From the UHGV virus genome UHGV-0277313: a DNA stretch of 64,000 nt. One strand, 5' to 3'. The notes under the pieces are model-generated. The model searched no databases. It saw nothing but the letters and a program-made list of their open reading frames with translations, and was not told where the DNA came from. Of this stretch, positions 41,992 through 63,847 are shown piece by piece. How positions within the stretch are numbered: position 1 is the stretch's first letter; the number at the start of each line of letters is the position of its first letter. This DNA is from a virus. The position numbers were made by a program, and so were the translations under genes.

Positions 41992-42651
41992 ATGATTAAA
42001 TACTTTATTACTCCGAAAGTCTTGACTATGATTATTAACGGTAAGCAGATGTTCGTTCCGCAAAGTCATCTGAATTACGATACAATGTGCAATGCATTAC
42101 GTCAAGGTTGTAAAGATGAAAAGGTCATTATGGAATTGTTTGACCTTAAGAAATGTATGCTGGTGGAATTTCCGAACTATGTGGAAATTGATGAAAACGG
42201 TATGCTGGTATTGAAATACTGTCATGAAATCAACATGGAGAAATTCACAAAAGAAACGTTGTTGCAAAAACGCGATGGGGCTTGTGTTGAAAGTTTCTTC
42301 ATATTGCTGGCAAACATGAGCCAAAACAAAAGTGTGGATACATATCAGTTTTTACAATGGCTGAAAAAGAAGGGATATACCTATTCACACATGGGTACGA
42401 TTCTGTGTTATGCAAGAGTCTTTGATAACATGGGTGACGTTTTGCTTACTGACAAGAGAGATGCAAATGCAATTATCAGTATTCACCCGAAATACATTGA
42501 ATTCGTGACAGTGGACGGGGCGTTGAGAGAGAAAACGTTAGTCCAAAGCGAAGCAAGTTTAGAAATTGAATGGCACGGTAACAATGAGCCTGTTCCTTCG
42601 TTGGAAAACTTCAATGTCTTCAATGGGAACGATATGTTGGGTTGCATCTAA
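41992..42651 (+). CDS. hypothetical protein (C-terminus ...NGNDMLGCI)
   Basis: 219-aa ORF, SD gaaagggcaagacaATG. Confidence 0.55.
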   Translation: MIKYFITPKVLTMIINGKQMFVPQSHLNYDTMCNALRQGCKDEKVIMELFDLKKCMLVEFPNYVEIDENGMLVLKYCHEINMEKFTKETLLQKRDGACVESFFILLANMSQNKSVDTYQFLQWLKKKGYTYSHMGTILCYARVFDNMGDVLLTDKRDANAIISIHPKYIEFVTVDGALREKTLVQSEASLEIEWHGNNEPVPSLENFNVFNGNDMLGCI

Positions 42652-42665
42652 AGGGAGTAAAGACA

Positions 42666-43058
42666 ATGGATCAAGATACAATAAAAGAGCTGAACGAATT
42701 GATGAAACAAGGTTTGTATGATGACATTGAAGAAATAATGAACGAACAGTTCCCGTTGTATTCTATTGCCTATTTCAGACCGTTTCAGAAATTTGTAATC
42801 ATTGTTCCTGGTGAATGTGATGGCGTGTCATACGACGACGATGGTACGGCAGTGTTTCGTATGACGTATCAAGAGAAGGGCGGGTTTGTCGAATCAATCT
42901 ATTGGTATCTTAGTTATGAGATAAAAACTTCGCCGCTGGTTACGCCCAAAGGTAAGGCAAACTTGTTAGTTGTCAAACAGTGCAAAAATTTTATAGAGGC
43001 TGTACAATGTATTCAAAACATTGACATTGATGGTGAGAAAGCTTTGAAGGAGATTTGA
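42666..43058 (+). CDS. hypothetical protein (C-terminus DGEKALKEI)
   Basis: ORF from ATG after aaagggagtaaagacaATG. Confidence 0.55.
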   Translation: MDQDTIKELNELMKQGLYDDIEEIMNEQFPLYSIAYFRPFQKFVIIVPGECDGVSYDDDGTAVFRMTYQEKGGFVESIYWYLSYEIKTSPLVTPKGKANLLVVKQCKNFIEAVQCIQNIDIDGEKALKEI

Positions 43059-43060
43059 CA

Positions 43061-43372
43061 ATGACTTTTGAAGAAGCTATCGAAGGATTACCTATCATTA
43101 TCATGGGAAGCTGTTGCACGATTGGAGAGGTGATAGCAAAAGAAGAAAGAGGAGATGTCGTTTGCTTTTTGGCAGAAGCCAAATATCATGGAACATTAAG
43201 TTTAACAGGTGAGCTTAATGTCAGCAAGAAACTTTATGACGAGAACAAAACTGATTATGAAAAAACAGATTTCAAGATAATCAGAAAATCCGTCATAACG
43301 GAGGGGAACAATTTCCCTGAATATTATGTTGTTTTGAATGACATTGGCGAACGAACAATAGGGAGGATCTGA
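43061..43372 (+). CDS. hypothetical protein (C-terminus IGERTIGRI)
   Basis: SD aaggagatttgacaATG lies within previous gene's last codons. Confidence 0.55.
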   Translation: MTFEEAIEGLPIIIMGSCCTIGEVIAKEERGDVVCFLAEAKYHGTLSLTGELNVSKKLYDENKTDYEKTDFKIIRKSVITEGNNFPEYYVVLNDIGERTIGRI

Positions 43373-43375
43373 AAT

Positions 43376-43729
43376 ATGAAATTTTCCGAATTATTGAAAC
43401 ACATAAAACGCTTGGCGTTAAAACAAAGCTGTGATGTATGGAAAAATTACACATGGCATTGTGATAAAATCATATCTAACACCGACGAACTTAAGGTTAT
43501 GTTGGCTGATGGAGTTCAATACTTCACAGCTGTTGGTCGGGCTATTAATAATAACAACCGTAATGACTTCCTAAAACAACAGGCAATAGTGCGTATCAGT
43601 CGCGATGTCTTTGAATATATTGACAAATTGACTGAAAATGATGTAAAGCTTGTATGGGTTTCATCGAGCAAACTTTATTTGAGTCTGGAGATGGCACATT
43701 GTGGTGAGGTCATTTTAGAAAGAATCTAA
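43376..43729 (+). CDS. hypothetical protein (C-terminus CGEVILERI)
   Basis: 117-aa ORF, SD gggaggatctgaaatATG. Confidence 0.55.
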   Translation: MKFSELLKHIKRLALKQSCDVWKNYTWHCDKIISNTDELKVMLADGVQYFTAVGRAINNNNRNDFLKQQAIVRISRDVFEYIDKLTENDVKLVWVSSSKLYLSLEMAHCGEVILERI

Positions 43730-43742
43730 AAGGAGTGAAACA

Positions 43743-44120
43743 ATGGCATGGAGTAGAAGACAAATCTGTCAAGAATTGAAAAGAATTTTCAACGGGCAGT
43801 TTTTAGATATCATTGGTTCAGACAAACCTTTAAACATACACGTTTTAAAAGTTCAAGAAAACTTTCATGAGTATGATCTGAAAAGTATTTGGGGAAAGGA
43901 AGGGAAAGATTATAAACTGTGGTTTTATGGGAAGAATCTTGCCGGAGGGTCGTCGATTACAGTCTGTATGGTGTTGACAAAAAAGTTAGCAAGAGAATTA
44001 CAAAATTATTGTATAGGTGATTTTGTTTTAACTTTTATGAAAAAAGAAAGCACTGAAAAATATCCTTTTGTCAGGTTGGAACTTTTGTCAACAGGAAAAC
44101 AAACATTACAGGAGATTTAA
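43743..44120 (+). CDS. hypothetical protein (C-terminus TGKQTLQEI)
   Basis: 125-aa ORF, SD aaaggagtgaaacaATG. Confidence 0.55.
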   Translation: MAWSRRQICQELKRIFNGQFLDIIGSDKPLNIHVLKVQENFHEYDLKSIWGKEGKDYKLWFYGKNLAGGSSITVCMVLTKKLARELQNYCIGDFVLTFMKKESTEKYPFVRLELLSTGKQTLQEI

Positions 44121-44122
44121 GA

Positions 44123-44332
44123 ATGAAGAATGAAATCACGTTAAAAATGTGGACGCTTATGTTAGGTCTTACAGTGTCATTCGTTTTAGGAATAGTCAGT
44201 CAAGGACATAATAAATTACGTTATGTCAAATTGATTGACGAACAGTTTGAGGTGATGGGAAAGATGCAAGCCGTGAACAATCGGTGTATCAATCAGGTTA
44301 TCGCGTTAATGGAGGAGAAGAATGTCAGATAA
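44123..44332 (+). CDS. small membrane protein
   Basis: TM segment WTLMLGLTVSFVLGIV; SD caggagatttaagaATG. Confidence 0.5.
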   Translation: MKNEITLKMWTLMLGLTVSFVLGIVSQGHNKLRYVKLIDEQFEVMGKMQAVNNRCINQVIALMEEKNVR

Positions 44333-44627: not shown

Positions 44628-44639
44628 AGGAGAGTACAA

Positions 44640-45191
44640 ATGAGAAACGTAGAATTGTTGAGCAAGAACAAAGATATGACAAAACAAATCGAAGCTGTCA
44701 ATAAGGCTATCGAAAAGTTTGGTCATAAAGACAATGAAACCGTGCAGATAGATTCTGTTGACAACGTAGCCAAAGATGATGTAGTCTTTATCTATGATTA
44801 CAGTTGTTTAGGAAAGAGCTTTCACGCTTTTATCGAAGCCTTCAAAGTTTTGGTATGGAAGAAAGCAGAGGTTCATTTTGTTGTTGAGAACTTGAATTAT
44901 TGGAACGATGTGCAATTGCAAGGATCCTTGACAGCATTGACATTTGCAGAAGAGTGTGAAAGAAGACTTCGCAGCGCGGTGTCAAAAGAGAACCTTGCAG
45001 AAGCAGCAACAAGAGGAAAGTTTGCAGGCCGTCCTAAAGGTTCAAAGAACAAAGAAAGTCTGATTATCACGAAAGCCGCTGAAATTGAATTTTGGTTGCA
45101 GCAAGGAGAAACCAAAAAATGGATTGCTAAACAGTTGGGTATTTCGGTGGGTACGATATATAACTATATCAAATCCAAAACAGAAGCTTAA
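44640..45191 (+). CDS. serine-recombinase (resolvase/invertase)-like protein with C-terminal HTH; N-terminal catalytic Ser motif apparently absent
   Basis: internal DYSCLGKS...ALTFAEECERRLRS resembles resolvase DRLGRS/E-helix region; GRPKGSKNKES then HTH KKWIAKQLGISVGTIYNYI. Confidence 0.5.
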   Translation: MRNVELLSKNKDMTKQIEAVNKAIEKFGHKDNETVQIDSVDNVAKDDVVFIYDYSCLGKSFHAFIEAFKVLVWKKAEVHFVVENLNYWNDVQLQGSLTALTFAEECERRLRSAVSKENLAEAATRGKFAGRPKGSKNKESLIITKAAEIEFWLQQGETKKWIAKQLGISVGTIYNYIKSKTEA

Positions 45192-45216
45192 CACTATCAA
45201 ACAAAGGAGAAAAGGG

Positions 45217-46245
45217 ATGTACTATGATGGTAAATTAAAAGAGTTGGAACAGAAAATCGAAACTCTGGAAGATAAAGTTTTTGGTATGAATCGCAGCACG
45301 GAGAAGAATGAACAATCCTTTGCTGATCAAATTAAAACACTCAGACAAAAAACACAAAGCTGTTACAGACAGTTTGATGCCGCTCAAAGTGATGCCGAAA
45401 TGGACAAAAGTAAACAAGTTTGGCAATCCGAGATATCTGAATTAGAGACACTGCTTATTAAGGAATATGAGCGTATTAAAGAAGCAGTGAAAAATATTCC
45501 TTTTGGTTACATTGCTGAAAGTGTTGGTATTGATCCTGTGACAGGATATTGCAAGTGTATTTGGAAATGGTCAGCGACTGAACCGACCAAAGATACTGAA
45601 GGTGCTGGCTATGTAGATTTCAATACTAAAGATGTCAGTCGCGATGAATTCAAAAAGATTCGAGGCTTGATGAAAAAATATGGTCTCGATAAATTCTGTC
45701 TTTATGAAATCTCTGGTAAAAAGGAATATCCCTTGTGCTTCAAATGTGGTAAAGATGATTTGGTGACTAAAGAATCTGAAGAATCTAAATCATTAAATGA
45801 AGTTGCAAAGATGTTCAAACACGGTTGGTTGTGTCAAGATGAAGAACGAATCATGTGGGTTCCTAAACGTCCTAAAGGTTTGTCTTTGTGGAATAAACAG
45901 AAAGGCGGTGTGGAATTAAATGTTGAAATTGAGAAAACCAAAAACCCGTGTTACGTCGATTGCAAAACAGGAAAAAAGTTTTCCAGAATTTGGTTGAAAG
46001 ATGTGGAATTCCAAGAGTACGATGATTATCGATGCAGAACATTCACTCTTGACGAACTGGAAGAACATTTTATATGCGCCGGTAATAGCTTTACAGTGAA
46101 AGTAATGAAAGGTAATGAGGTCTTGCGCGATGATGAAACATTGGAACATTTAATCGACGAAATCAATTCCACGTATGAAGACTGGAATGCTATAAAAGGA
46201 AGATTTCCTGAAACGATTTGCTTAATCAAAATGTGGGGAGGCTGA
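45217..46245 (+). CDS. hypothetical protein
   Basis: ORF trimmed to ATG after aaaggagaaaagggATG; listed N-terminal extension overlaps previous gene. Confidence 0.55.
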   Translation: MYYDGKLKELEQKIETLEDKVFGMNRSTEKNEQSFADQIKTLRQKTQSCYRQFDAAQSDAEMDKSKQVWQSEISELETLLIKEYERIKEAVKNIPFGYIAESVGIDPVTGYCKCIWKWSATEPTKDTEGAGYVDFNTKDVSRDEFKKIRGLMKKYGLDKFCLYEISGKKEYPLCFKCGKDDLVTKESEESKSLNEVAKMFKHGWLCQDEERIMWVPKRPKGLSLWNKQKGGVELNVEIEKTKNPCYVDCKTGKKFSRIWLKDVEFQEYDDYRCRTFTLDELEEHFICAGNSFTVKVMKGNEVLRDDETLEHLIDEINSTYEDWNAIKGRFPETICLIKMWGG

Positions 46246-46247
46246 AG

Positions 46248-47108
46248 ATGATTGAATTCAACGGAACGGTGAAAGAGTTTTTGAAGAATTACCCGAAAGA
46301 AGAAAGAAAGGTCGGGGAAACGTATCGTATCATTACAACTAAAGGAAGTAATGATTATCAGTTTGTTGGCAGCGTGTCTGAAAAGAATTTCAAGAGGATT
46401 GAAAATAACAGCACTGTTGACAATGAAATTGATGGTGCAGAATTGGAACGTCAAGAAGATGAAAGACAGTTGTCTGAATTGAAACGGTTGGCTAAAAAGA
46501 TTTTAGAGGCTGAACCGACGTATGAAAGAGATTTGGGATCAATGTGTGAAAAAGTCTTGGCTTGTATCAATGCTGAAGATTTGGCATGTATCGCAAATGT
46601 TGCAGCAGTCAATCGTTTGATGGGACGTGTCGTATATATCCAAAATGATGAGGCATGTTGGGAAGTTAAGAAGAATGTTGATTGTGATATCTATGACTTC
46701 ATTGATAAGTTGGCAGAGACTATCAGATTGCAAAGTATCGGCGATAAAGAATTCACATTGCTTAACAAACTGTTGTATCAAGAAGATGCCGATAACTTTG
46801 CACGATTCTGTGATGAATGGAGAGACAAATGTTGTGATATCATGGAGTGTTGCAAACAGTTTTGCGGGTTTGACTTGAAAAAAGTTATTCGTCTGAATAA
46901 TTTGATACATCATTTATCAAACATTGAGGACGGGTATCTGGAATATTTGAACGAAATTGTCGATGATTATGCATGGTTTGGGGAAACGTTTAAGACCTAT
47001 TCCAAAAATACGGACGATTTCATTGTTCATAATATCGCAGAAGAGTTCAAAGACTTAAACCGGTATCTGATTAAACTGTTTGTAAATTACGGGGAGTTGG
47101 ACAAATGA
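46248..47108 (+). CDS. MIEF-family paralog 1 (conserved N-domain MIEFNGTVKEFLKNYPKEERK...EKNFKR)
   Basis: ORF from ATG after gggaggctgaagATG; N-terminal 60 aa shared with 52961 and 54993 genes. Confidence 0.6.
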   Translation: MIEFNGTVKEFLKNYPKEERKVGETYRIITTKGSNDYQFVGSVSEKNFKRIENNSTVDNEIDGAELERQEDERQLSELKRLAKKILEAEPTYERDLGSMCEKVLACINAEDLACIANVAAVNRLMGRVVYIQNDEACWEVKKNVDCDIYDFIDKLAETIRLQSIGDKEFTLLNKLLYQEDADNFARFCDEWRDKCCDIMECCKQFCGFDLKKVIRLNNLIHHLSNIEDGYLEYLNEIVDDYAWFGETFKTYSKNTDDFIVHNIAEEFKDLNRYLIKLFVNYGELDK

Positions 47109-47455: not shown

Positions 47456-47631
47456 AGACATTTCATATCAATATCAAACAGACAGTCAAGGGTTATTACA
47501 TTATCCGGGCTGATTCTGAAGAAGATGCACTTGATTTGGCACAAGGTTATCTTGAATTAGGTGAACATCTTGATAAAGAAACAGTTGTTGATGGGGAGGT
47601 TGTTGATGTCGAAGAGGTTGGAAAGTCTTGA
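47452..47631 (+). CDS. small hypothetical protein (59 aa)
   Basis: ATGA overlap with previous stop; below track cutoff. Confidence 0.35.
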   Translation: MKTFHINIKQTVKGYYIIRADSEEDALDLAQGYLELGEHLDKETVVDGEVVDVEEVGKS

Positions 47632-47920
47632 AGAGCTTGTAGATTTTCTGATGTCATCAACAATATCGGAAATAGATGAGGTCGGCTTTGATCCTGGTTT
47701 CAAAGACGGCCTCTTCTGTATATCCTATAAAGACATATCAGTTGCGTTTGACTTGAATGATAAATACATAGAACATCTGTATGTGTCTTTACAAGGAAAT
47801 CCAAAAGTGCAAAAAATCGACATTAATGATGATGTCGATGATGATGTCAGTCAGATAATCATAGACAAGTTCAACAAAATAATTGTTCCGATAGGTGAAC
47901 AATGTTTAGAAGGAGTTTAA
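47606..47920 (+). CDS. hypothetical protein (C-terminus IGEQCLEGV)
   Basis: ORF trimmed to ATG with SD ggggaggttgttgATG. Confidence 0.5.
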   Translation: MSKRLESLEELVDFLMSSTISEIDEVGFDPGFKDGLFCISYKDISVAFDLNDKYIEHLYVSLQGNPKVQKIDINDDVDDDVSQIIIDKFNKIIVPIGEQCLEGV

Positions 47921-48695: not shown

Positions 48696-49037
48696 ATGGA
48701 AAAAGAATTAATTGTTTGCGATAACTTTGGTAAACAGGTGCAGATAGGGGATATCATTGTCTTCGTTGAAACCTTCAAATATCGCGGTATAGAAAAATAT
48801 GGTTCAGCCTTGACGGTGGCAACAGTTATGGAAATAACAAACCGTAGGTTTAAATTGGCCCCTGTATACTTTTCTAAAGACGAGTATGAAGCATTAAAGA
48901 AACGCGGTGGTTACGCCGTATACAGTCCTTCCAAAAAACAATACATATCAACAGAAAAGAAATTCCTTGAACATCAATACAATGCTTTCTATATTGTTGG
49001 TCATGGTGATGGAAGTGTTGTACTAAACATTATATAA
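48696..49037 (+). CDS. hypothetical protein (C-terminus GDGSVVLNII)
   Basis: ORF trimmed to ATG after aaaggagatgaagacaATG. Confidence 0.55.
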   Translation: MEKELIVCDNFGKQVQIGDIIVFVETFKYRGIEKYGSALTVATVMEITNRRFKLAPVYFSKDEYEALKKRGGYAVYSPSKKQYISTEKKFLEHQYNAFYIVGHGDGSVVLNII

Positions 49038-49049: not shown

Positions 49050-49382
49050 ATGTCAATGTACTATATCGATGACTTTGATGAAGAACGTTTTAAACAAATG
49101 AAGGAATGGTTAAAAGGTCGAGAACTTCCTGATGGTGAAGGACTTTTTATGTCTGTATTAGATAATGCCCCTATGTATACAGATCAAAACCCTGATGACT
49201 ATTTCAATATTGTTCATGCCCAAACAAAAGACCCTGATGATATCGGATTAAAAATTGTTCGTATCAATCAGAATCTGTTTAAATCCGATTATAGTTTCGA
49301 TAAATGTGAGCTGGTCCCTCAAGGCGAGGTATTATATATCGAACCTATCAATGCGGGTAAAAATACCCTGAACACAATCTGA
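49050..49382 (+). CDS. hypothetical protein (C-terminus AGKNTLNTI)
   Basis: 110-aa ORF, SD aaaggagggtcattATG. Confidence 0.55.
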   Translation: MSMYYIDDFDEERFKQMKEWLKGRELPDGEGLFMSVLDNAPMYTDQNPDDYFNIVHAQTKDPDDIGLKIVRINQNLFKSDYSFDKCELVPQGEVLYIEPINAGKNTLNTI

Positions 49383-49394: not shown

Positions 49395-49423
49395 TTGACA
49401 AATCGTTTAAATTAATATAACAA
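49395..49423 (+). promoter_or_regulatory. possible promoter sharing the TTCCTATTGACAAA box
   Basis: tttcctattgacaaatcg identical over 14 nt to 28641..28654; -10 weak (tataac/taacaa). Confidence 0.35.
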
Positions 49424-49460
49424 TTATCTTGAATGATGGTTGTTGTATAGGAGGTGTTGC

Positions 49461-49796
49461 ATGACGAAAGATATCAATGAGCTTTTAAGGTGGAAGTCGT
49501 TAATCAACATGTTGAAGGATAAGTGTCCTTTAACAACCAGTAACGGTTATGACGTATATGACATTGGCCTTGATGATATCGGCTATTGTTATGATGATAG
49601 AATTGTCCGCGTCAATTGTACTTTAAAGAGCAGGACGTTTTGTGAGCCGTTTATCGTGCAGCTTTACATCAATTTGGAATTGTTGACGAGATTGAGTCGT
49701 GTACCAGGTGAGCTTTTGGAATTTCATCACATATACAGAACAACATACAAATTGATGGAGAAACATATTGGCACACACACCTTAAACAATCTGTGA
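49461..49796 (+). CDS. hypothetical protein (C-terminus IGTHTLNNL)
   Basis: ORF from ATG after ataggaggtgttgcATG. Confidence 0.55.
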   Translation: MTKDINELLRWKSLINMLKDKCPLTTSNGYDVYDIGLDDIGYCYDDRIVRVNCTLKSRTFCEPFIVQLYINLELLTRLSRVPGELLEFHHIYRTTYKLMEKHIGTHTLNNL

Positions 49797-49810: not shown

Positions 49811-50176
49811 ATGAAAAAGGAATTGGTGGAATTATGGGAGAAACGAAGAGAGAACATTAACAAAACTTTAAGAGATGTTCAGTTTTCTATTGTCGAGAAA
49901 AATGTTCTTTATCGATTTTCTTTTGGTCGCGTAATGGAATCAGCAGAAAAAGCCTTGAAGGGCAATGATGACCCTAAAAATTTGGTGCTGGATTGTTTGT
50001 GTATTTGGTATAGAAAAGACAGTGTAGCAACAATCACATTTGCTATTAGCTTTAAATCAGATTTTGTGGATCGTATATCAACAGTCCCTAGAGAGAATAT
50101 CGAAATTGTTGATTCAGACGACGGTATTGTCTGTCAAGAAAAAGAAATTGGAACAGTCGTGATGGAGATGGTATGA
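49811..50176 (+). CDS. hypothetical protein (C-terminus IGTVVMEMV)
   Basis: 121-aa ORF, SD agagtggtgaacaATG. Confidence 0.55.
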   Translation: MKKELVELWEKRRENINKTLRDVQFSIVEKNVLYRFSFGRVMESAEKALKGNDDPKNLVLDCLCIWYRKDSVATITFAISFKSDFVDRISTVPRENIEIVDSDDGIVCQEKEIGTVVMEMV

Positions 50177-50541
50177 TGAAGGATAAGAAATTGGAAAGAG
50201 AAACTAAACAGTTCGCAAGGTATATACGTAACCTGGAAAAAGTGTTGGCTGATAAGCAAGTATTCGTTGAGGACGAACGATATAAATTTCTGTTTGTTTT
50301 GCTTAATGAAACCGAAGCGTATAAACGGAATGCACTTTATCATAATCCTTCACATTACGAATTCAAGAGTTGTTTTCTAAGATACACTGGAGAGTGTGAA
50401 TATTTCAATGTGTATGTGGAGATTGAACTTTTGACACGTATCAGAAAATGTAAGAAGAAATCTTTACAATTACATGCGAAGGATAAAGATGTTATATTAG
50501 AGGAAATTCCTTGCGGGGAAGTGGTGTTGGGAGGGATATGA
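50173..50541 (+). CDS. hypothetical protein (C-terminus CGEVVLGGI)
   Basis: 122-aa ORF, ATGA overlap. Confidence 0.55.
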   Translation: MMKDKKLERETKQFARYIRNLEKVLADKQVFVEDERYKFLFVLLNETEAYKRNALYHNPSHYEFKSCFLRYTGECEYFNVYVEIELLTRIRKCKKKSLQLHAKDKDVILEEIPCGEVVLGGI

Positions 50542-50879
50542 TGAAAATAAGTACAGATACAGAGAAGTTCCGAAGGTTGCAAAATGTTTTAGTAGGTAAA
50601 CCTATTCTTGATACAGTCGTTTCACATGTTTCGAAGTCGGCAGATGTTTTAGCTGACTTTAATGACAATGCACAATATATCGTATTGAACATAGTACCTA
50701 AAACACGCAATTCATGGGAACTGATGAGTTGGACTGTGTATATGAAGGTAGAACTTTATAAACGCCCTAAACTTTTTCCGCTTTTGGAATTAGCTATACG
50801 TGATGATATGTTTCATTCCGGAAAGTGGATAGAGGTTGTCTTGCCAAGCATCGGGGAAACAACCTTAAACAAAATATAG
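50538..50879 (+). CDS. hypothetical protein (C-terminus IGETTLNKI)
   Basis: ATG overlapping previous stop; SD gggaggg. Confidence 0.55.
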   Translation: MMKISTDTEKFRRLQNVLVGKPILDTVVSHVSKSADVLADFNDNAQYIVLNIVPKTRNSWELMSWTVYMKVELYKRPKLFPLLELAIRDDMFHSGKWIEVVLPSIGETTLNKI

Positions 50880-50881: not shown

Positions 50882-50910
50882 TTGACAATTGTCTGACACT
50901 TTTATACAAT
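50882..50910 (+). promoter_or_regulatory. sigma70 consensus promoter (TTGACA-N17-TACAAT)
   Basis: ttgacaattgtctgacacttttatacaat, 30 nt upstream of 50942 start. Confidence 0.65.
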
Positions 50911-50941: not shown

Positions 50942-51277
50942 ATGAGCAACAAACAGACCTATACGACATCTGAACTGATGTTTTCGATTGTTGAGAATTT
51001 GGAGAGACAGATTGTCAACATCAACGCGGTTATTGGTGTATTGAAAGAAACCGCTGAGGAAATGAAAGCACGTGAAGAAGACAATGTGTATGGTATTAAA
51101 CGTGAACAGTTTGAAGAAATTGCTAAACTGATTCATATGAAAAACAAGATGCAGAATGCCTTGAACAACATTGCACATGGTGAAATGACAGTTAAACCGT
51201 ATGGTACAGTGTTCATGGGTCGCGAAGAAGAAATCACTTTGCAACAATACGCAGAGGAAGCTTTAAAGGAGGATTGA
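50942..51277 (+). CDS. hypothetical protein
   Basis: 111-aa ORF, SD aaaggagaatagctATG. Confidence 0.55.
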   Translation: MSNKQTYTTSELMFSIVENLERQIVNINAVIGVLKETAEEMKAREEDNVYGIKREQFEEIAKLIHMKNKMQNALNNIAHGEMTVKPYGTVFMGREEEITLQQYAEEALKED

Positions 51278-51624
51278 ATATGAAGAATTGGGTAGGATAC
51301 AAAGGTCGATTGAAAAGCCTTTTATTGGCCGTTGATGAAATCTTGTATGCACAATATCAGGTACACGTCAGAGATTTCGACAAAGTTATCCGGTCCAATA
51401 TTCATTTCACCGATCAGTTGAAAAATAAAGAAGACACCGTGATGGTTTTAATCGACTTTAAATCCGAGACAGATGAAAGTTTGTTGTTGTCACAATGGTT
51501 TTACATTGATAAATCATTATTAAGACGATATAAAACCTTCACGGCCAGTATGATTGATTATTCAGATGATGAAAGTACAATCAAGGAAAAAGATATAGGG
51601 TGCCAAACCCTTTTCTCTGTATGA
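51274..51624 (+). CDS. hypothetical protein
   Basis: 116-aa ORF, ATGA overlap. Confidence 0.5.
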   Translation: MNMKNWVGYKGRLKSLLLAVDEILYAQYQVHVRDFDKVIRSNIHFTDQLKNKEDTVMVLIDFKSETDESLLLSQWFYIDKSLLRRYKTFTASMIDYSDDESTIKEKDIGCQTLFSV

Positions 51625-51649
51625 TTCTATCTGTATGAAAGGAAAAACA

Positions 51650-52168
51650 ATGACAAAGTTTTGTAAGTGCAACTTTAAGAAACCGTTAACAGAACAAACG
51701 TTAGATGGTGATTGGGTTGTTTCTTGTCATAATTGTGGTAAGGAAGTATCAGCTGAAACGAAGTTTGATGCGATTGCCAAATGGGATAAACAATACGGTA
51801 CGAATGTTTGTTTCTGTTGTGAATCAAGCAAGGTATTACCGAAGAATATCAACGCTGCTGAAAGTAATCTGTCTGTAAGTGAAATTGAAAAACGAGCTAA
51901 AAAAGATGCAACTGAAGGGGTTTGTATCTATACATTAAGCCCGTTATATTTACGGACATTAATTTCAAATATTAAGTGTTATGATGTATCGAATGATTGG
52001 TCTTTTGTCATTCTGAAAAACAATGGCGAAAAAATTAATGTTGATACATTCACGTTGTGTAAAGCAGTCGAGGACGATTACGGATATATGTTGTCTATTC
52101 CTATTGATGTGTTTATGCAACATGTTTTAGATGACAACAAAGCTGAAGACAAAGAAGAAGAGGAGTAA
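51650..52168 (+). CDS. Cys-rich hypothetical protein, paralog of 60415..60744 product
   Basis: MTKFCKCNF...CHNCGK...CFCCESSKVLPK...; shares CxxCESS-LPK...YT(L/M)SP(L/F)(Y/F)L block with 60415 gene. Confidence 0.55.
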   Translation: MTKFCKCNFKKPLTEQTLDGDWVVSCHNCGKEVSAETKFDAIAKWDKQYGTNVCFCCESSKVLPKNINAAESNLSVSEIEKRAKKDATEGVCIYTLSPLYLRTLISNIKCYDVSNDWSFVILKNNGEKINVDTFTLCKAVEDDYGYMLSIPIDVFMQHVLDDNKAEDKEEEE

Positions 52169-52817: not shown

Positions 52818-52845
52818 ATTTTGCAAGTTGACAATTTTCCTCTTT
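52818..52845 (+). promoter_or_regulatory. sigma70 consensus promoter (TTGACA-N16-TATAAT) flanked by inverted repeat
   Basis: ttgacaattttcctctttttgttataat; aaagaggaatt / aattttcctcttt inverted repeat spans the -35. Confidence 0.65.
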
Positions 52846-52960
52846 TTGTTATAATAAACATGTAACATTAAGGAGATTGGTCATGAGAATGAAAATCAAG
52901 TTGAAAAAAGTCAGGATTCGTTAATCATCAAATCGCGACAACCTTAAGGAGATTAAAACA

Positions 52961-53740
52961 ATGATTGAATTTAAAGGTTCACAAAAGGCATTCTTCAAGG
53001 CATATCCGAAGGATAAAAGAAGTCTGAATGAAGTGTATCGTCTGATTTCCTATAACATCATTACTAAACAGGAAACCAAAACATGCTATCAGTTCATTGG
53101 TTCGTTGGGTGAAAAGAACTTTAAGAAAGTTGAAACACCTGAAGATGTTACAGTAACTGAAACTGTTACCGTTAATACAAAAGATACAAATGATACGAAC
53201 GTATCTGATGTACAAAAGGTAGATGATTTAGAATTTGCTAATCCTGATGATGACGTTAAAGAGAAGACTGAAGAAGTAACAGAAGTCAGTGAAGCAAAGG
53301 TGGAAGAAAAGACTGAAGCTGTTAAAGAAGAAAAGCCGAAAAAGAAAACAATCACCGCCAAAAGAAAAGAATTGTTGGACGCTTTTGATGTGTTGAGTGG
53401 AGTTATCGGCATTGAAATTGACGCCGATTGCCCTGTGGATTTCTTTGCATTGATGAATGTTATATCTGAATTCGAACGTGGTGACTTTAGTACTGAACCT
53501 TCGACATATGTTGATATGTTCAAGTATTTCCTGAACAAGTATCCTAAACACGCTAAAGAAATTCAGGTATGCATTGATTATCTGGAAGAAGTTTATAACG
53601 ACATTAGACAAAAGAAAAGCAGCTATGATAAACATGTTTATAACTTCTATAGTCATTGCGGTTTAGGTGCCGAAAAGGAGAAGAAGGAACAACGAAAAAG
53701 TAAAAGTCAAAGCAAGAGTCAGAGGGTACGTAAACGATGA
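52961..53740 (+). CDS. MIEF-family paralog 2 (acidic/Lys-rich middle, basic C-terminal tail)
   Basis: MIEFKGSQKAFFKAYPKDKRSLNEVYRLI...GEKNFKK N-domain. Confidence 0.6.
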   Translation: MIEFKGSQKAFFKAYPKDKRSLNEVYRLISYNIITKQETKTCYQFIGSLGEKNFKKVETPEDVTVTETVTVNTKDTNDTNVSDVQKVDDLEFANPDDDVKEKTEEVTEVSEAKVEEKTEAVKEEKPKKKTITAKRKELLDAFDVLSGVIGIEIDADCPVDFFALMNVISEFERGDFSTEPSTYVDMFKYFLNKYPKHAKEIQVCIDYLEEVYNDIRQKKSSYDKHVYNFYSHCGLGAEKEKKEQRKSKSQSKSQRVRKR

Positions 53741-54702: not shown

Positions 54703-54990
54703 ATGAACATAGAAAATGAATTAAAACACAAAGCTTGTAACATAGACTTATTCACAAAAAAGGCGGTTGAAGATGTTGCGGCTTTAGGGGAGTACACCGG
54801 TTTGTTGCTTGACCTGTCAAATCAAATTCAAATGGAAATGGAGATGTTGCGTGAGCAGAATAAAAAACTTAAAGAAACTCTGGAGTTCTATGCTTCCGGA
54901 CAGCACATCGACTCAATTTCAACCGGAAGTTCATATTCAATTAGAATTGAAGACGGAACGAAAGCTAAAGATTGCTTAAAGGAGATATGA
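54703..54990 (+). CDS. hypothetical coiled-coil protein (C-terminus KAKDCLKEI)
   Basis: ORF from ATG after ggagtgcggactATG. Confidence 0.5.
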   Translation: MNIENELKHKACNIDLFTKKAVEDVAALGEYTGLLLDLSNQIQMEMEMLREQNKKLKETLEFYASGQHIDSISTGSSYSIRIEDGTKAKDCLKEI

Positions 54991-54992
54991 AC

Positions 54993-55577
54993 ATGATTAC
55001 ATTTAACGGATCTCAAAAACAATTTTTTAAGGCTTATCCAAAAGAAAAGAGAAGCTTGAAAGAAACATATAAGCTTATCAATTCTGCTGGTGAAATTGAA
55101 TACAAATTTATCGGTGGTCTTGGTGAGAAATGTTTCAAGAAGTTCGTAAAGAATGATACTGAGTTGAAAGAAATAGAAAACATTAAAAAGAAAGAAACCA
55201 AACCAAAAAGAAAAATACTACTAAAATGGGAAGAAAAATGGGAAGAAAAATATGGTAGAAGCTTTGATGAAATGTGGAGCGAAATGGTGTGGGAACATGG
55301 TTTCACTACATCGAATGAAGATGCGTATTCTTGTTTAAAAGATGCATATGATAATATACAGGATATCCTGACAGATGAAGAAAAAGTATGTTGTGAACAT
55401 ATTCTTGAAATATTCAAAGTTTTTGGGAAACTTCCAACAGAAGATTACTATGACTTTTTTGTAAAGGTATCAAAAAGAATAAAAAAATCTAAGATAAAGG
55501 AAAAATGGGATAAAGCTTGTGTAAGTTATGTTTACTATTATTGGGATTATCAAAACTATCTTGAAAGTAGTTATTAA
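54993..55577 (+). CDS. MIEF-family paralog 3
   Basis: MITFNGSQKQFFKAYPKEKRSLKETYKLI...GEKCFKK N-domain. Confidence 0.6.
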   Translation: MITFNGSQKQFFKAYPKEKRSLKETYKLINSAGEIEYKFIGGLGEKCFKKFVKNDTELKEIENIKKKETKPKRKILLKWEEKWEEKYGRSFDEMWSEMVWEHGFTTSNEDAYSCLKDAYDNIQDILTDEEKVCCEHILEIFKVFGKLPTEDYYDFFVKVSKRIKKSKIKEKWDKACVSYVYYYWDYQNYLESSY

Positions 55578-58721: not shown

Positions 58722-59012
58722 ATGTTTGACATGTCTATTTACTCTTGGTTAAAAGCTATGACATTAAAAGCAGGTCATTTGCTTAATAAAGATAATGTTC
58801 GTTTTACTGGATGGACAACTGCAAGCTCGACTTTATATTTTCGTTTGTATTATCAATACGGGAATTTTCTCAGTTATGATTATATTCTTGCTGATCCTTT
58901 GATACAACAGCTGTCTATCGAACAAATATTGAGTGATGGGATTGTTTTTAAATACGAAGATAATTTCTTAACGATAGAAGAAATAGGAAACGAAGCGTTC
59001 AATAAAATTTAG
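58722..59012 (+). CDS. hypothetical protein (C-terminus IGNEAFNKI)
   Basis: 96-aa ORF, SD gaaaggtaATG. Confidence 0.55.
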   Translation: MFDMSIYSWLKAMTLKAGHLLNKDNVRFTGWTTASSTLYFRLYYQYGNFLSYDYILADPLIQQLSIEQILSDGIVFKYEDNFLTIEEIGNEAFNKI

Positions 59013-59029
59013 ATAGAAAGGAAATAGCA

Positions 59030-59329
59030 ATGCGAATAGGCGATGATAAAATTCTTGATATCTTAAATGAAAAAGCAGCAGATATCATCATTGAAGGGTG
59101 TAAGGTTCATTTCACTAAACTGATTCAATTTAATCTTAATCAATGGTACACTGTCTTTAATTACAAAAGAGGAAAAGGCTGCTGTGAAGAGTCAGATATT
59201 ATCTATATCGATCATGCGATTATGGATACTGATGTTGATGTTTTAGAAAGAGGTGCGACTACATTTAAATTTAAAAATAATTATTTAACAATAAGTAATA
59301 TAGGAAAAGAAACCCTTAACAACATTTAA
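59030..59329 (+). CDS. hypothetical protein (C-terminus IGKETLNNI)
   Basis: 99-aa ORF, SD gaaaggaaatagcaATG. Confidence 0.55.
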   Translation: MRIGDDKILDILNEKAADIIIEGCKVHFTKLIQFNLNQWYTVFNYKRGKGCCEESDIIYIDHAIMDTDVDVLERGATTFKFKNNYLTISNIGKETLNNI

Positions 59330-60414: not shown

Positions 60415-60744
60415 ATGCCTATTTGTTATGTGTGTGAATCAAGTTTAGCATTGCCTAAAGGAGTATCGACTGAAGAATGTAATTTGTCGATAGATGAAAC
60501 AATACAGAAAGCTGAAGAAGTTGCAATGACAGGAGAGTATGTTTATACTATGTCACCTTTCTTTCTTCAGTCGTTGGTTTTGTTTGCTGATCAAAAAGGT
60601 GTCTTGAATCGTTGGTATTTTATATTATTGCATGACAACGGTTCAAAAGAAGACAAGACAGATAAACGTGAAGATTTGTTTGCAATGATGACATCCCCGT
60701 TGGATCGTTTATTCATGGTCCCTTTTAATGAGGATAATGAATGA
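60415..60744 (+). CDS. hypothetical protein, paralog of 51650..52168 product
   Basis: MPICYVCESSLALPK...NLSIDE...YTMSPFFLQSL shared block. Confidence 0.55.
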   Translation: MPICYVCESSLALPKGVSTEECNLSIDETIQKAEEVAMTGEYVYTMSPFFLQSLVLFADQKGVLNRWYFILLHDNGSKEDKTDKREDLFAMMTSPLDRLFMVPFNEDNE

Positions 60745-60958
60745 GTATTGATTTATTTGGTTATTAATTACCTGTAGAATGTCGTACTATTTTAGCAAGA
60801 CTATTAAATGATATTCATTGTAAATCAGATTTGCTAGATCGTTTGATGAAAGAAGATATTTGTGTCACTGTTGAAGACTTTAAAGTTGTGGAAAGTACAA
60901 TCGGAAACAAGTGTTTAGATAGAGTGTAAACTATCATGACAACTTTGGAAGATGATAA

Positions 60959-61330
60959 ATGATTGAGAAAATTGATAAAGATGATTTGATAAAGCTCAAG
61001 AAGATTATACATAAACTTAAGGGTGTATCATTCAGCAGAAATATCCAATTGGATGATGGTCGTACTGTATTGTGTAAAGCTATCATGACGGGTAAGTTGA
61101 TGAAGCTAAAGGGTTTAGAAACAATATACACACAAAACAATATACTATTCATTGCCAATTGTGATGTCATTGTTAATGATGTAACTAAACATAGGAATCA
61201 AGGGTTTGAGATGTTTATCCAAAGAGATTTATTCAACTTAAAGGATGTAGATAAGGCTGACTTTAAACTGAATGATAAATTTAGAGTAATTCTAAAGGAT
61301 TTATCTGAAGAGACTTTAGACAATATTTGA
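60959..61330 (+). CDS. hypothetical protein (C-terminus LSEETLDNI)
   Basis: 123-aa ORF. Confidence 0.5.
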   Translation: MIEKIDKDDLIKLKKIIHKLKGVSFSRNIQLDDGRTVLCKAIMTGKLMKLKGLETIYTQNNILFIANCDVIVNDVTKHRNQGFEMFIQRDLFNLKDVDKADFKLNDKFRVILKDLSEETLDNI

Positions 61331-61340
61331 GGTGTCTTAA

Positions 61341-61799
61341 ATGATTGATAGAAATGATGGGTTATACATACAACAAACAAAGAAGTTGTGCAATGTCAAA
61401 AGCACAAAGAGTAGAGTTGTTGGTTGTAAAGGGTTTATTCTAAATAGATTTGATAGACGCCGTTTGAATAAGCTGATTGCTATTTTCGGTAATCGGTTCT
61501 TTTGTTTAAAGGTAAATTATTTAAGTAGGTCTTACACTTTTGAGTTTAATCTTCAGAGATGTGAACGTGTATCATATTTTGAACATGGCTCAGGATATTT
61601 TGAAAATGACTCAGAATATGAAGTGGTGTTTAGTTGTACAGATAGGAGAAATAGGTCATTCATTGTTCATGAATCTTTATGGAATGATTTGTTAAAATTT
61701 AGGAATGACTGTATAGAATTTACTTTAGAAGAATATTGTGATGATTTGCTATATGTGAAAACTTTAGATTTAGGTTCCTGTACATTAAACGAGATTTAG
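61341..61799 (+). CDS. hypothetical protein (C-terminus LGSCTLNEI)
   Basis: 152-aa ORF, SD gaggtgtcttaaATG. Confidence 0.55.
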   Translation: MIDRNDGLYIQQTKKLCNVKSTKSRVVGCKGFILNRFDRRRLNKLIAIFGNRFFCLKVNYLSRSYTFEFNLQRCERVSYFEHGSGYFENDSEYEVVFSCTDRRNRSFIVHESLWNDLLKFRNDCIEFTLEEYCDDLLYVKTLDLGSCTLNEI

Positions 61800-61807
61800 G
61801 TAGTTAC

Positions 61808-62152
61808 ATGTGTGACAAGAAGCTATTAATAGACAACATCGCTATTCTATCAGATTGGTTAAAAGGAAGGAAGGTTCCGGTTCTTGGTGGCAGTTTTACA
61901 ACATTACAAGAAACGGATCTTGATTTAGACCTTGAAACACATGATGGTTTGATCCTATTGGATTATGGCTTCACATTCTTGCAACAGGAATATGGCTGTT
62001 GTTCAGTGGCTATATCTAAAAAAGTACTTGAATCATTAAACAAAGTTGACAAAAGTCTGTTTAGGTTATATGTTAATGAAGATGATATCAGGAGATATTT
62101 CTTAAGGTTTGACATTGCGAATGTTAACGAAGAGTATTTAGAAGGATTGTGA
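61808..62152 (+). CDS. hypothetical protein (C-terminus EEYLEGL)
   Basis: 114-aa ORF. Confidence 0.5.
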   Translation: MCDKKLLIDNIAILSDWLKGRKVPVLGGSFTTLQETDLDLDLETHDGLILLDYGFTFLQQEYGCCSVAISKKVLESLNKVDKSLFRLYVNEDDIRRYFLRFDIANVNEEYLEGL

Positions 62153-62153
62153 C

Positions 62154-62501
62154 ATGATTGAAGATGTGACTGATGTAAAGTGTTTACAAAAGCTGACTGC
62201 TATTGTAGAAATTTTAAAAGACACTGTTGTTTTAAATACTTTGCGAGGTGTTACAATGTGTCCGAATAAATATGTTATTCTTGATCAAGCCGGTAGTGCG
62301 ACATATTGGACGAATATTTATTTCTATGAGATCCCCGTTTATGTAAAAATGACTGATGATGATAAAGAAGTTATTAGGGTTTCTTCTTTTTACATGAAGA
62401 AAGACGACGTAGATAATTATCGTATAGGTGATCCTTTATATGTGGATGACTATATTATTTACTTGAAGGATTTGGGCATTGCAGTTTTAGACGAGTTGTG
62501 A
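62154..62501 (+). CDS. hypothetical protein (C-terminus LGIAVLDEL)
   Basis: 115-aa ORF; SD gaaggattgtgacATG embedded in previous gene's last codons. Confidence 0.55.
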   Translation: MIEDVTDVKCLQKLTAIVEILKDTVVLNTLRGVTMCPNKYVILDQAGSATYWTNIYFYEIPVYVKMTDDDKEVIRVSSFYMKKDDVDNYRIGDPLYVDDYIIYLKDLGIAVLDEL

Positions 62502-62502
62502 T

Positions 62503-62874
62503 CTAAATGTTTTCTAAACATAAATGACCCACTTCCTTTTCGACTATTTTAGTAACTTCATCCGGATCATCTGTAACTATAATTTCATTCGCTTTGATTG
62601 TATCAAGTCGTTGTACAATATGATCACTGATATAAATAATCAATGTTCTATATTGTAATTTTTCATTTTGACATGTGACTTGAACAGGTTGAAAGTTTGG
62701 TATTTTGTTTGATATATATTTATCATACTGTCGTAATATAGCTGATTCAATATAGAATTTATATGTTACATAAGAATTGAGTATATGAAAATAAAAGTGA
62801 AACGGTATGCCTTTTAAAAGGTCAGTCAATAAAATATCTGTTTGTGTAGGATGAAGCATTTTTATTTCTGTCAC
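62503..62874 (-). CDS. hypothetical protein on minus strand (C-terminus VGHLCLENI)
   Basis: 123-aa ORF convergent with 62154 gene; own promoter 62896..62925. Confidence 0.5.
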   Translation of the reverse strand: MTEIKMLHPTQTDILLTDLLKGIPFHFYFHILNSYVTYKFYIESAILRQYDKYISNKIPNFQPVQVTCQNEKLQYRTLIIYISDHIVQRLDTIKANEIIVTDDPDEVTKIVEKEVGHLCLENI

Positions 62875-62895
62875 ATGTTATTTCTATATGTTTAA

Positions 62896-62925
62896 ACTAT
62901 AGAACAATATATGATAGTTTGTCAA
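62896..62925 (-). promoter_or_regulatory. sigma70-like promoter on minus strand (TTGACA-N18-TATAGT)
   Basis: reverse complement reads ttgacaaactatcatatattgttctatagt just upstream of 62874 start. Confidence 0.55.
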
Positions 62926-62998
62926 TGCATTTTTACAGGTTGACAAATAATTGTTTCCTGTGATAGTTTAATATAGTGTTTTTAAATAGGAATGTTAA

Positions 62999-63388
62999 AT
63001 GGTGTCTGATGCATTAAGAATAAAACAAAATCTTTGTATATTGAAAGATTGGTTATATAGTCAATATGTCATCGTATGCAATCCTTTTACAAATCAACAG
63101 GATGATGTAAGACATATCAAATTGTCTGATGAGATTGATGATATCATTTTAATGTTTTTAGGCGATTCAAAAAGTTATGTTGAGTTGATGTGTACAGGAA
63201 TGGTAAATGTTTATACCGTTAATGAAGAAGTGTTTTTAAGGTTGTTCATACCCAAAACATTACTAGAAAAACTAAATGCATTTAGCACAGATTGTTTCAG
63301 AATTAAAAGCAATGAAAAAACGTTTTACAATCACATCATTTATTTTGATCTTAAAGAGTGCAATCTTGTATTATTAGATAGCATTTAG
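62999..63388 (+). CDS. hypothetical protein (C-terminus CNLVLLDSI)
   Basis: 129-aa ORF. Confidence 0.5.
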   Translation: MVSDALRIKQNLCILKDWLYSQYVIVCNPFTNQQDDVRHIKLSDEIDDIILMFLGDSKSYVELMCTGMVNVYTVNEEVFLRLFIPKTLLEKLNAFSTDCFRIKSNEKTFYNHIIYFDLKECNLVLLDSI

Positions 63389-63397
63389 GAGTCAATC

Positions 63398-63847
63398 ATG
63401 AAATCTAAAATTGGTGGCAAGTTTTTTAAAAAGTTGTCTGAACAGTCAACGGGAAAAGATAAGTGGTTAGATAAGTGGTTGAGTTCGACAATCTTTTTAG
63501 GTAACCGTTACGATAGAAGACGATTAAAATTTCTAATTTCTTTTTTGTTTGAGAATTCGACAAACAGACCTATCATTTATGATCCGGTAGATAAAGAAGA
63601 ATTGATCCCTGAACGTCTTTTAATCGTGTCTTTTGATGCATCTAGTGAAACATTTTATTTCAATATAAAATACAAAAATCACGACGCAAATGATAGGTGT
63701 TGCAACCTTGTCGTTTCAAAAGAATTGTGGGATGAATTGATTCATTTAGAAAATAAATTTTTTGATTTATGTTTTGATATTGATAAAAACTATATCGTTC
63801 ATGTCGTTAAACAACATGTAGGTCAAGCGTGTTTATCTAGTATATAA
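63398..63847 (+). CDS. hypothetical protein (C-terminus VGQACLSSI)
   Basis: 149-aa ORF, SD ttaggagtcaatcATG. Confidence 0.55.
   Translation: MKSKIGGKFFKKLSEQSTGKDKWLDKWLSSTIFLGNRYDRRRLKFLISFLFENSTNRPIIYDPVDKEELIPERLLIVSFDASSETFYFNIKYKNHDANDRCCNLVVSKELWDELIHLENKFFDLCFDIDKNYIVHVVKQHVGQACLSSI

Follow-up and report, generated by a model that had tools for sequence, protein, structure and literature searches.

A shared C-terminal tail in a jumbo phage

The recognisable genes in the 64,000-nucleotide stretch of virus genome UHGV-0277313 that we analysed (hereafter, the window) fit a jumbo myovirus-like phage. Arrays of small genes span 42.6-51.6 kb and 58.7-63.8 kb in the window and continue over the next 10 kb, and many of their products had been predicted to share a C-terminal nonapeptide, here termed the tail. 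Every tail listed in this original prediction is present at its gene, and a motif-enrichment check bore the claim out: a strict pattern anchored at the protein end (G...[LIMVF]..[ILV]$) matched 26 of the 118 mechanically called proteins of the window, against 0.43 expected from the internal frequency of the motif (66 sites in 18,113 positions), an approximately 60-fold enrichment. Among the open reading frames (ORFs) discarded during gene calling, just two of 230 had a strict tail.

Two tailed genes were absent from the mechanical call (50541-50879, ending IGETTLNKI, and 31421-31946, ending LGELMMEML), and four looser tails carry S, N or A instead of the Gly (54703, 60959, 61808 and 62999); together, these bring the window total to 32. 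Reading the 3′ flank from a 276,920-bp metagenomic contig that contains the window identically (ENA ERZ28615576 scaffold_19), we found 13 strict and four loose tails in the next 10 kb, i.e. on 17 of 22 genes. The block of replication and nucleotide-metabolism genes that lies left of the window has none. All previously listed bearers proved real; the list had overlooked IGCQTLFSV (51280-51624) as well as seven upstream genes (24204, 25209, 31421, 32662, 33281, 33859 and 38565), so the phenomenon begins well before position 41992.

Across 49 tails, Gly occupies position -8 (44/49) behind I, V or L at -9, and Leu occupies -4 (41/49) behind T, C or V at -5. Position -7 is polar, mostly E (Q in 6/49), as are -3 and -2, where N, E, D or K predominate. 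The last residue is I in 34 and I, L or V in 46 of the 49, F in two, and Y or W in none. The ending is placed with precision: the pattern [LIVMC]G...[LIMF]..[ILV] occurred 47 times in 140 proteins, of which 33 lay at offset 0, none at offsets 1-10 and 14 deeper, such that 33 of 33 near-end occurrences were without any residue after the motif. The tail, Phi-G-x-x-[T/C/V]-L-x-x-[I/L/V]-COOH (Phi, hydrophobic), is a genuine functional element.

Selection on the tail at the protein level

An ending of this kind might also arise as a by-product of Shine-Dalgarno overlap, translational coupling, promoter or terminator sequence, mis-called or recoded stops, or chance. A GGAG, GAGG or AGGA core for the next gene does lie within the last five codons of 10 of 31 tails (e.g. 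...TTGAAGGAGATTTGA-CAATG); the earlier remark that some tails carry the downstream Shine-Dalgarno sequence was therefore correct, but is limited to these ten, and the other 21 of 31 have no such core. Moreover, the Gly codon lies 22-24 nt 5′ of the stop, too distant for a Shine-Dalgarno role. Codon choice at the conserved positions varies freely—GGA, GGT, GGG and GGC for Gly; TTA, TTG, CTA, CTT and CTG for Leu; ATT, ATC and ATA for Ile—and all three stop codons follow the tails (TAA 10, TAG 5, TGA 15), as anticipated by the view that nucleotide constraints do not suffice. Mis-called stops, named at the outset as a possible artefact, were not seen: the independent gene calls of the ENA record end at the same codons, and orthologues in four other lineages terminate at the same residue. 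Together with the enrichment and the near-absence of the motif from discarded ORFs, codon usage and Shine-Dalgarno counts effectively refute nucleotide-level causes, leaving the by-product explanation barely credible. By these comparisons, selection on the tail is at the protein level.

Most small bearers resemble one hyper-divergent family

Pairwise BLASTP revealed little similarity among the bearers. However, aligning the last 52 residues uncovered a pattern common to those of 95-150 residues—a beta strand, a helix (xxLhxxL), two strands and then hG-xxxLxxI—to which the full-length alignment added an N-terminal 'L..L..WLKG'-like helix. We scored 49 bearers against 91 non-bearers with leave-one-out hidden Markov models (HMMs), for which the last 10 residues were cut and BLAST-detectable relatives excluded. 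About 22 of the 49 tail-less bearers scored above all or nearly all of the non-bearers; the remaining bearers did not. The wider C-terminal pattern and these scores suggest that most bearers are paralogues that inherited the tail. We thus infer that most bearers of 95-150 residues form one hyper-divergent, lineage-specific expansion, with tail-less homology demonstrated for about half of them only; overall, some three quarters of all bearers look like members of this single lineage-restricted family (hereafter, the small family). The view that bodies are dissimilar, and the ending hence a tag rather than a family trait, accordingly finds no support for the small bearers, which share a body pattern, but survives for a second set that, once deprived of the tail, shows no detectable similarity (see below).

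For one member (61808-62152), an AlphaFold2 model built with 24 paralogues reached a predicted local distance difference test (pLDDT) score of 67, with a helix at residues 4-18, strands, a strand at 63-70, a helix at 71-76, strands at 85-91 and 97-103, and a helix at 106-112. The tail residues were its least confident part (pLDDT <50). The model suggests an architecture of N-terminal helix, sheet, beta-alpha-beta-beta unit and short terminal helix, for which no fold match was found in PDB or BFVD. A model of the larger bearer 32662-33270 (eight homologues) reached a pLDDT of 44 and gave no usable fold.

The family stays within its lineage in every search we made. Scanned against Pfam, PHROG and NCBIfam, 29 bearers had no family in common, nor did a sequence profile search of PDB find a family for the tail bearers. 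Run against 1.84 billion representative proteins, the profile of the last 52 residues matched 12 small proteins of this lineage, each identical or nearly so to a window protein or closely related to one, and two eukaryotic FN3-repeat phosphatases that we judged spurious; a word-indexed search with the same profile returned three fragments, and a single-protein search with 32662 close relatives only. We found no description of the tail motif or the small family in the literature. This agrees with the earlier statement that no described phage family is defined in this manner. Even under the most mundane reading, then, the family is new, very large, extremely fast-evolving and without a database model; by the sequence searches, it and the portable, strictly C-terminal motif are both new.

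BspA-type leucine-rich repeats (LRR_5) have the form IGxxAFxxC, whose spacing resembles that of the tail. This candidate was rejected: no leucine-rich repeat family was found for the 29 bearers at E <= 1, and the motif is present in a single copy per protein.

The same ending on proteins outside the small family

Not every bearer belongs to the small family. Ten atypical bearers (24204, 25209, 32662, 33281, 33859, 38565, the rIIB-like 41992, 42642, 48648 and 54694) were compared, without their tails, with the small-family profile, and each had an HHalign probability of <1%, the same as 68 negative controls. We also assembled nine tail-less orthologue families from four lineages: no pair among them reached 5% HHalign probability, and none resembled the small family. 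In addition, the periodicity of the 11-residue segment preceding the tail is helix-like in 14 of 17 larger proteins but mixed in the small family, with 20 of 39 strand-like (p = 0.013 for the difference), which implies that the same ending occurs in different sequence contexts. By these profile comparisons, at least nine further families carry the tail without detectable similarity to one another or to the small family, including rIIB-like, small hydrophobic and MoxR-neighbourhood proteins.

A related ending had been proposed (...YIDVLNEI) for seven array paralogues at 6540-10137, and it is seen there as Y[IV]D[VI]L[ND][EK]I. Their last five residues, VLNEI, are shared with the main tail and there is no Gly at -8. 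These proteins resemble one another (mutual BLASTP E down to 2e-19), and HHalign detected no body similarity to the small family. They are flanked by an RCC1-like protein (10280-11887) and a dCMP deaminase (6063-6467).

Conservation across diverged lineages

We compared the window with a 313-kb relative from IMG/VR (L001 and L002; 41-88% protein identity) and with three further lineages (L005, L007 and L020) whose marker protein is 41-46% identical to that of the window. Megablast against INPHARED found no near-identical cultured phage, and scans of metagenomes and IMG/VR with the marker alignment for remoter lineages returned only the 313-kb relative and one short fragment. In the closest relative, tails are 62% identical versus 49% for bodies. 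Over five families in four lineages, invariant columns make up 11% of the body versus 31% of the tail, with 12 of 15 Gly/Leu/Ile positions invariant. The tails persist in syntenic genes even at 41-46% marker identity; the gene directly 3′ of the zincin-VWA gene, for instance (31421-31946), has orthologues that end VGEFLMEML (L001/L002), IGQAVLDEI (L005) and MGDLILEMI (L007). In L020 (7965-17004), tails occur at the same orthologous genes, and three of five end in Val, against Ile or Leu elsewhere, which hints weakly at a concerted change across unrelated proteins. Judged from these alignments, the tail is the best-conserved segment of its bearers across four to five diverged lineages.

Tail bearers around the MoxR/zincin-VWA pair

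The window encodes a MoxR-type ATPase and a zincin-like metallopeptidase-VWA fusion, recognised by AAA_5, DUF2201_N and DUF2201 domains with intact GETGIGKT (Walker A), HEAMH (HExxH) and DTSGS (MIDAS, DxSGS) motifs. Such pairs have been described in jumbo phages (PMC7824862); their naming after N4 gp24/gp25 was taken from the RaK2 and Pollock annotations. Synteny of the ATPase gene is kept in L001, L005, L007 and L020, and the pair as a whole is syntenic in all five lineages. The gene order in the window is 25209, three genes, MoxR, zincin-VWA, 31421, one tail-less gene, 32662, 33281 and 33859, and the conserved tail bearers cluster round the pair in all five lineages.

Strictly C-terminal motifs also occur 3′ of the pair in other phages. 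In Bacillus phage AR9 (KU878088.1, 13289-19550), g030, g031 and g033-g036 end in ..[RK]V[KR]xYEAxx[IL][LM][END]x[LI]; in Bacillus phage BpSp, gp088-091 (14963-19772) end in ..N[KR][LM]xx[IL]; and in Vibrio phage phiKT1024 (OM249648.1, 13318-20381), some 14 small genes (86-139 residues) 3′ of zincin-VWA end in [YH]PEx[FL][IL], e.g. YPEEFI. The endings in AR9 and BpSp are similar to the tail's five final residues, although no homology of any of these proteins to the tail bearers was demonstrated. The AR9 proteins are paralogues of 380-415 residues with a longer conserved C-terminal region, and ordinary paralogy may therefore explain their endings.

VWA domains bind carboxylate ligands at their metal-ion-dependent adhesion sites (MIDAS). 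From the gene neighbourhood, one might imagine that the tail is a client or sorting signal that takes more than 50 phage proteins to the MoxR/zincin-VWA pair, with the MIDAS reading the C-terminal carboxylate; the AR9, BpSp and phiKT1024 motifs would then be lineage-specific versions of one undescribed recognition mode. We consider this unlikely as it stands. Hypothetically, the same neighbourhood would also allow the tail to be bound at the MIDAS or cut by the zincin domain. A universal coupling of tail arrays to the pair was rejected, as the pair is unaccompanied by such arrays in RaK2, Pollock and phage G. Given these counter-examples and the paralogy in AR9, the link to this partner is a lead, not a finding.

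Genomic setting and expression

The coordinates of the tail bearers and of their context are collected in Table 1. The arrays lie next to an rIIA/rIIB-type pair: an rIIA-like GHKL ATPase (39607-41916, +, 769 residues; HATPase_c domain; TBLASTN to annotated rIIA genes, E 1e-48) is followed by the tailed rIIB-like gene (41992-42651, +), and TBLASTN with the rIIB-like protein found nothing. In the few intergenic gaps of the array, near-consensus sigma-70 promoters (TTGACA, 16-18 nt spacer, TATAAT-like) face the downstream genes, suggesting transcription by the host RNA polymerase, while the overall promoter count (92) is not in excess of that in shuffled sequence (84 +/- 8). Judging by this context—arrays beside rIIA/rIIB, behind sigma-70-like promoters—the small-family proteins may be early, host-directed or counter-defence proteins.

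Table 1 Tail bearers, context genes and promoters (aa, amino acids; positions refer to the window)
Position	Strand	Feature	C-terminal ending	Basis
6540..10137	-	Seven tandem paralogues, 159-172 aa	...Y[IV]D[VI]L[ND][EK]I	Sequences, BLASTP
15454..15834	+	Tail bearer, 126 aa	IGSNLLKDI	Regular expression; L001 orthologue keeps tail
15852..16235	+	Tail bearer, 127 aa; tandem duplicate of the 15454..15834 gene, 67% identical	IGSNLLKDI	BLASTP
24204..24380	+	Hydrophobic, membrane-like, 58 aa	FGACLINEI	Orthologue FGACFINEL; no small-family similarity
25209..25919	+	Family 'A', 236 aa	LGENSLERI	Four-lineage orthologue endings KGERLLREI, VGTACLEDI, AGAAVLEDI, IGDRVLGDV
28727..30025	+	MoxR-type AAA+ ATPase (AAA_5); context, candidate partner by neighbourhood		E 2.9e-14, Walker A GETGIGKT
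30089..31363	+	Zincin-like metallopeptidase-VWA fusion (DUF2201_N + DUF2201); context, candidate partner by neighbourhood		HEAMH at residue 78, DTSGS at residue 301
31421..31946	+	About 174 aa, directly 3′ of zincin-VWA gene	LGELMMEML	
32662..33270	+	Family 'B', 202 aa	IGELTFSTI	Tail kept in 8 database homologues and 4 lineages
33281..33877	+	Family 'C', 198 aa	VGEDCLITL	Orthologues
33859..34335	+	Family 'D', 158 aa	DGVGCLYTI	Orthologues
38565..38894	+	Family 'G', 109 aa	DGLRTIHSI	Orthologues
41992..42651	+	rIIB-like, 219 aa	NGNDMLGCI	PHROG 609, E 5.9e-7; orthologue ending SGDGLLDCF
42666..43058	+	Tail bearer, 130 aa; tail codons hold next gene's Shine-Dalgarno	DGEKALKEI	
43061..43372	+	Small-family, 103 aa	IGERTIGRI	Tail-less leave-one-out score 7.0; 0/91 non-bearers as high
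43376..43729	+	Small-family, 117 aa	CGEVILERI	Leave-one-out HMM
43743..44120	+	Tail bearer, 125 aa	TGKQTLQEI	Orthologue comparison
47606..47920	+	Tail bearer, 104 aa	IGEQCLEGV	Orthologue comparison
48696..49037	+	Tail bearer, 113 aa; body weakly resembles PHROGs 2251 and 3358	DGSVVLNII	
49050..49382	+	Tail bearer, 110 aa	AGKNTLNTI	
49461..49796	+	Small-family, 111 aa	IGTHTLNNL	Leave-one-out HMM
49811..50176	+	Small-family, 121 aa	IGTVVMEMV	Leave-one-out HMM
50173..50541	+	Small-family, 122 aa	CGEVVLGGI	Leave-one-out HMM
50541..50879	+	Tail bearer, 112 aa	IGETTLNKI	Orthologue comparison
50942..51277	+	Degenerate tail, 111 aa (G to A at -8, I to D at -1)	YAEEALKED	Orthologue ending identical
51280..51624	+	Small-family, 114 aa	IGCQTLFSV	Leave-one-out HMM
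54703..54990	+	Loose tail, 95 aa	KAKDCLKEI	
58722..59012	+	Tail bearer, 96 aa	IGNEAFNKI	
59030..59329	+	Small-family, 99 aa	IGKETLNNI	Leave-one-out HMM
60959..61330	+	Loose tail, 123 aa	LSEETLDNI	
61341..61799	+	Small-family, 152 aa	LGSCTLNEI	Leave-one-out HMM
61808..62152	+	Small-family, 114 aa, loose tail; AlphaFold2 target	VNEEYLEGL	Tail-less score 20.9
62154..62501	+	Tail bearer, 115 aa	LGIAVLDEL	
62503..62874	-	Small-family, 118-123 aa; sigma-70-like promoter upstream (62925-62896)	VGHLCLENI	Leave-one-out HMM
62999..63388	+	Small-family, 129 aa, loose tail	CNLVLLDSI	Tail-less score 13.9
63398..63847	+	Small-family, 149 aa	VGQACLSSI	Tail-less score 10.6
52828-52855, 50882-50910, 49395-49424, 62940-62967, 63853-63881	+	Sigma-70-like promoters		
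62925-62896, 60218-60190	-	Sigma-70-like promoters		

Several other features of the array region are of note in their own right. Three tail-less paralogues (46218-47108, 52961-53740 and 54972-55577) share their N-terminal 60-90 residues (E 1e-11 to 1e-14), and another tail-less pair (51635-52168 and 60415-60744) has about 110 residues in common (E 2e-17). Amid the small genes, 44640-45191 (+) encodes a protein of 183 residues in which a weak resolvase N-terminal domain precedes a C-terminal helix-turn-helix.

Further upstream, an EcoRI-type adenine methyltransferase (E 3e-102) adjoins a GmrSD_N + HNH protein (35951-38550, +); here, a methylase is paired with a nuclease targeting modified DNA within a phage. 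The stretch at 16460-21400 has low coding density, long hairpins (17810-17865 and 19397-19451) and a 37-nt direct repeat (at 17523 and 17729). Neither a tRNA nor a credible Rfam match was found in this gene-poor stretch (16.5-21 kb), and the relative L001 has a similar one. Immediately beyond the window are a family-A DNA polymerase with an intein/HNH insertion (L013 11119-13482), NrdD/NrdG, a T4-type spanin and an RNA ligase, as well as a 289-aa ankyrin-repeat protein inside the tail array and an AAA_33/metallophosphatase/T4 RNA-ligase-1 fusion (L004 16744-17613, 19724-20450).

Parallels in known systems

The nearest precedent is the kind of expansion, confined to one jumbo-phage lineage, that gave Bacillus phage G its approximately 35 zinc-ribbon paralogues (Iyer et al. 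2021, PMC7824862). As there, the small family comprises dozens of small, fast-diverging paralogues in tandem arrays of one jumbo-phage lineage. Unlike the zinc ribbons, however, it has no recognisable fold and no Pfam or PHROG match, and its only near-invariant feature is the terminal nonapeptide, which also ends unrelated proteins.

Short terminal peptides that route proteins are familiar from several other systems. The cargo-loading peptides of encapsulins, C-terminal and GSLxIGSLK-like, dock cargo to an HK97-fold shell, and are reminiscent of the tail in being short C-terminal docking signals with a Gly and spaced Leu/Ile on unrelated proteins. Yet consensus and spacing differ, as far as a comparison of motifs goes, and the bearers look mostly early rather than like capsid cargo. 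No HK97-fold shell gene was found in the window, and the tail is not a cargo-loading consensus. In the single-stranded DNA-binding protein (SSB), a tail ending DDDIPF-COOH lets one protein bind many partners; exact C-terminal anchoring, a hydrophobic last residue and a carboxylate read by a pocket are points of likeness, but here many proteins with one tail would bind one partner, and the sequences are unrelated. Poxvirus ankyrin/PRANC (F-box-like) proteins and the multigene families of African swine fever virus combine variable bodies with a conserved terminal module that links them to one cellular machine or compartment. These are eukaryotic viruses without homology to our case, and their module is a domain of 40-50 residues or a KDEL-type signal, not nine residues.

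The T4 capsid targeting sequence, ssrA and MuA likewise use short terminal peptides to route unrelated proteins to one machine. The first is N-terminal and cleaved, and the ssrA LAA and MuA RRKKAI endings differ from the tail in composition. An ssrA/MuA-type ClpX degron was rejected on the grounds that N, E, D or K predominate at -3 and -2, the chain closes on I, L or V and a terminal Ala-Ala is lacking. A sliding-clamp motif (QL[SD]LF/PIP-like) was rejected, too, since -7 is mostly E (Q in 6/49) and terminal aromatics are rare. Set against a PDZ ligand, with its hydrophobic last residue, free carboxylate and class-defining residue at -2, the tail ends in I, L or V in 46 of 49 cases and is exactly anchored, while -2 is variable and conservation lies at -4, -5 and -8. 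Where testable by motif, the tail has none of the defining sequence features of the encapsulin, SSB, degron, T4 and poxvirus systems.

A docking peptide or a structural cap?

The original prediction had offered a degron, a virion-packaging or export signal, or a docking strand as possible roles. Our preferred reading, held tentatively and with slightly less than even confidence, is that the tail is a portable C-terminal docking peptide that would engage one putative common partner of this jumbo-phage lineage. The last seven residues would form a two-turn amphipathic helix beginning at the Gly, with residues -5, -4 and -1 and the free terminal carboxylate inserting in a pocket of the shared partner; the variable bodies would bring different specificities, or be different clients. 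By neighbourhood, the first candidate for the partner is the phage MoxR AAA+/zincin-VWA pair, and the second would be a host protease or chaperone that reads C-termini. The alternative is that the tail is purely structural: all bearers would have one small C-terminal sub-domain, inherited or fused, whose last helix caps the fold, the Gly forming a turn and Leu/Ile making core contacts, with no common partner, and the larger proteins would be N-terminal extensions or fusions whose kinship has decayed below detection. The small family, in which an N-terminal helix, a beta-alpha-beta-beta unit and a strand-G-helix ending are shared, about 22 of 49 bearers are detectable without the tail and AlphaFold2 places a short terminal helix after the last strand, is what this alternative expects, and small-domain expansions are known from jumbo phages, as in the zinc ribbons of phage G (PMC7824862). 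It sits less well with the nine larger families that, tail-less, resemble neither one another nor the small family, with the differing periodicity before the tail (a strand in the small-family model, helix-like in the larger families), and with a stop position that is constant in more than 60 very divergent proteins of five lineages, whereas a helix that simply caps a fold could usually accommodate further residues. Nor would one expect the tail to be the least confident part of the model; the lowest pLDDT at the tail of an otherwise moderately confident model is weak evidence for docking. Docking better explains jointly the invariant stop, the at least nine unrelated families, the differing contexts and the tail's standing as the best-conserved segment, and we therefore favour it over the structural account, which we regard as possible but less probable.

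Several points nonetheless weigh against docking. The tail of small-family members directly adjoins the conserved beta-alpha-beta-beta unit, and a Gly followed by Leu/Ile may equally fit a structural turn with core contacts. A shared C-terminal sub-domain of about 20 residues would have escaped HHalign after trimming of 10 residues. The AlphaFold2 models (pLDDT 67 and, for the second, 44) lend weak support, and the neighbours of the MoxR/zincin-VWA pair in RaK2, N4-like Pollock and phage G lack a common C-terminal motif. Finally, we looked for a tail-less member of the small family and found none, as the structural account would have it, so that separability of body and tail within the family is not demonstrated. 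As a special case of docking, the tail might be a degron read by a host AAA+ or PDZ-type tail-specific protease, giving early proteins a short, synchronised lifetime. C-terminal degrons such as ssrA LAA and MuA RRKKAI are well established in bacteria, the hydrophobic ending sits exactly at the terminus, its carboxylate free, and the sigma-70-like promoters in the gaps before the arrays (e.g. 52828-52855, 50882-50910 and 62940-62967) fit early expression. We nevertheless deem a degron quite improbable: the tail has neither the terminal Ala-Ala nor the basic run of ssrA and MuA, position -2, decisive in PDZ ligands, is variable, and the promoter total does not exceed expectation.

Implications for jumbo-phage biology

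Jumbo phages are rich in small genes of unknown function and offer few handles on them; a nine-residue tail on at least 50 proteins would provide one. With one tail peptide as bait, the common partner could be sought, which would place at least a fifth of the genes in an 84-kb stretch in a shared pathway. If the partner were the MoxR/zincin-VWA pair, the tail would supply a first rule by which this chaperone-protease module, found repeatedly in N4-like, RaK2-like and AR9-like phages, recognises its clients. If it were a host protease or hub instead, the small family would look like a stock of adaptors or inhibitors undergoing diversification, the counterpart in a bacterial virus of the poxvirus ankyrin/PRANC proteins.

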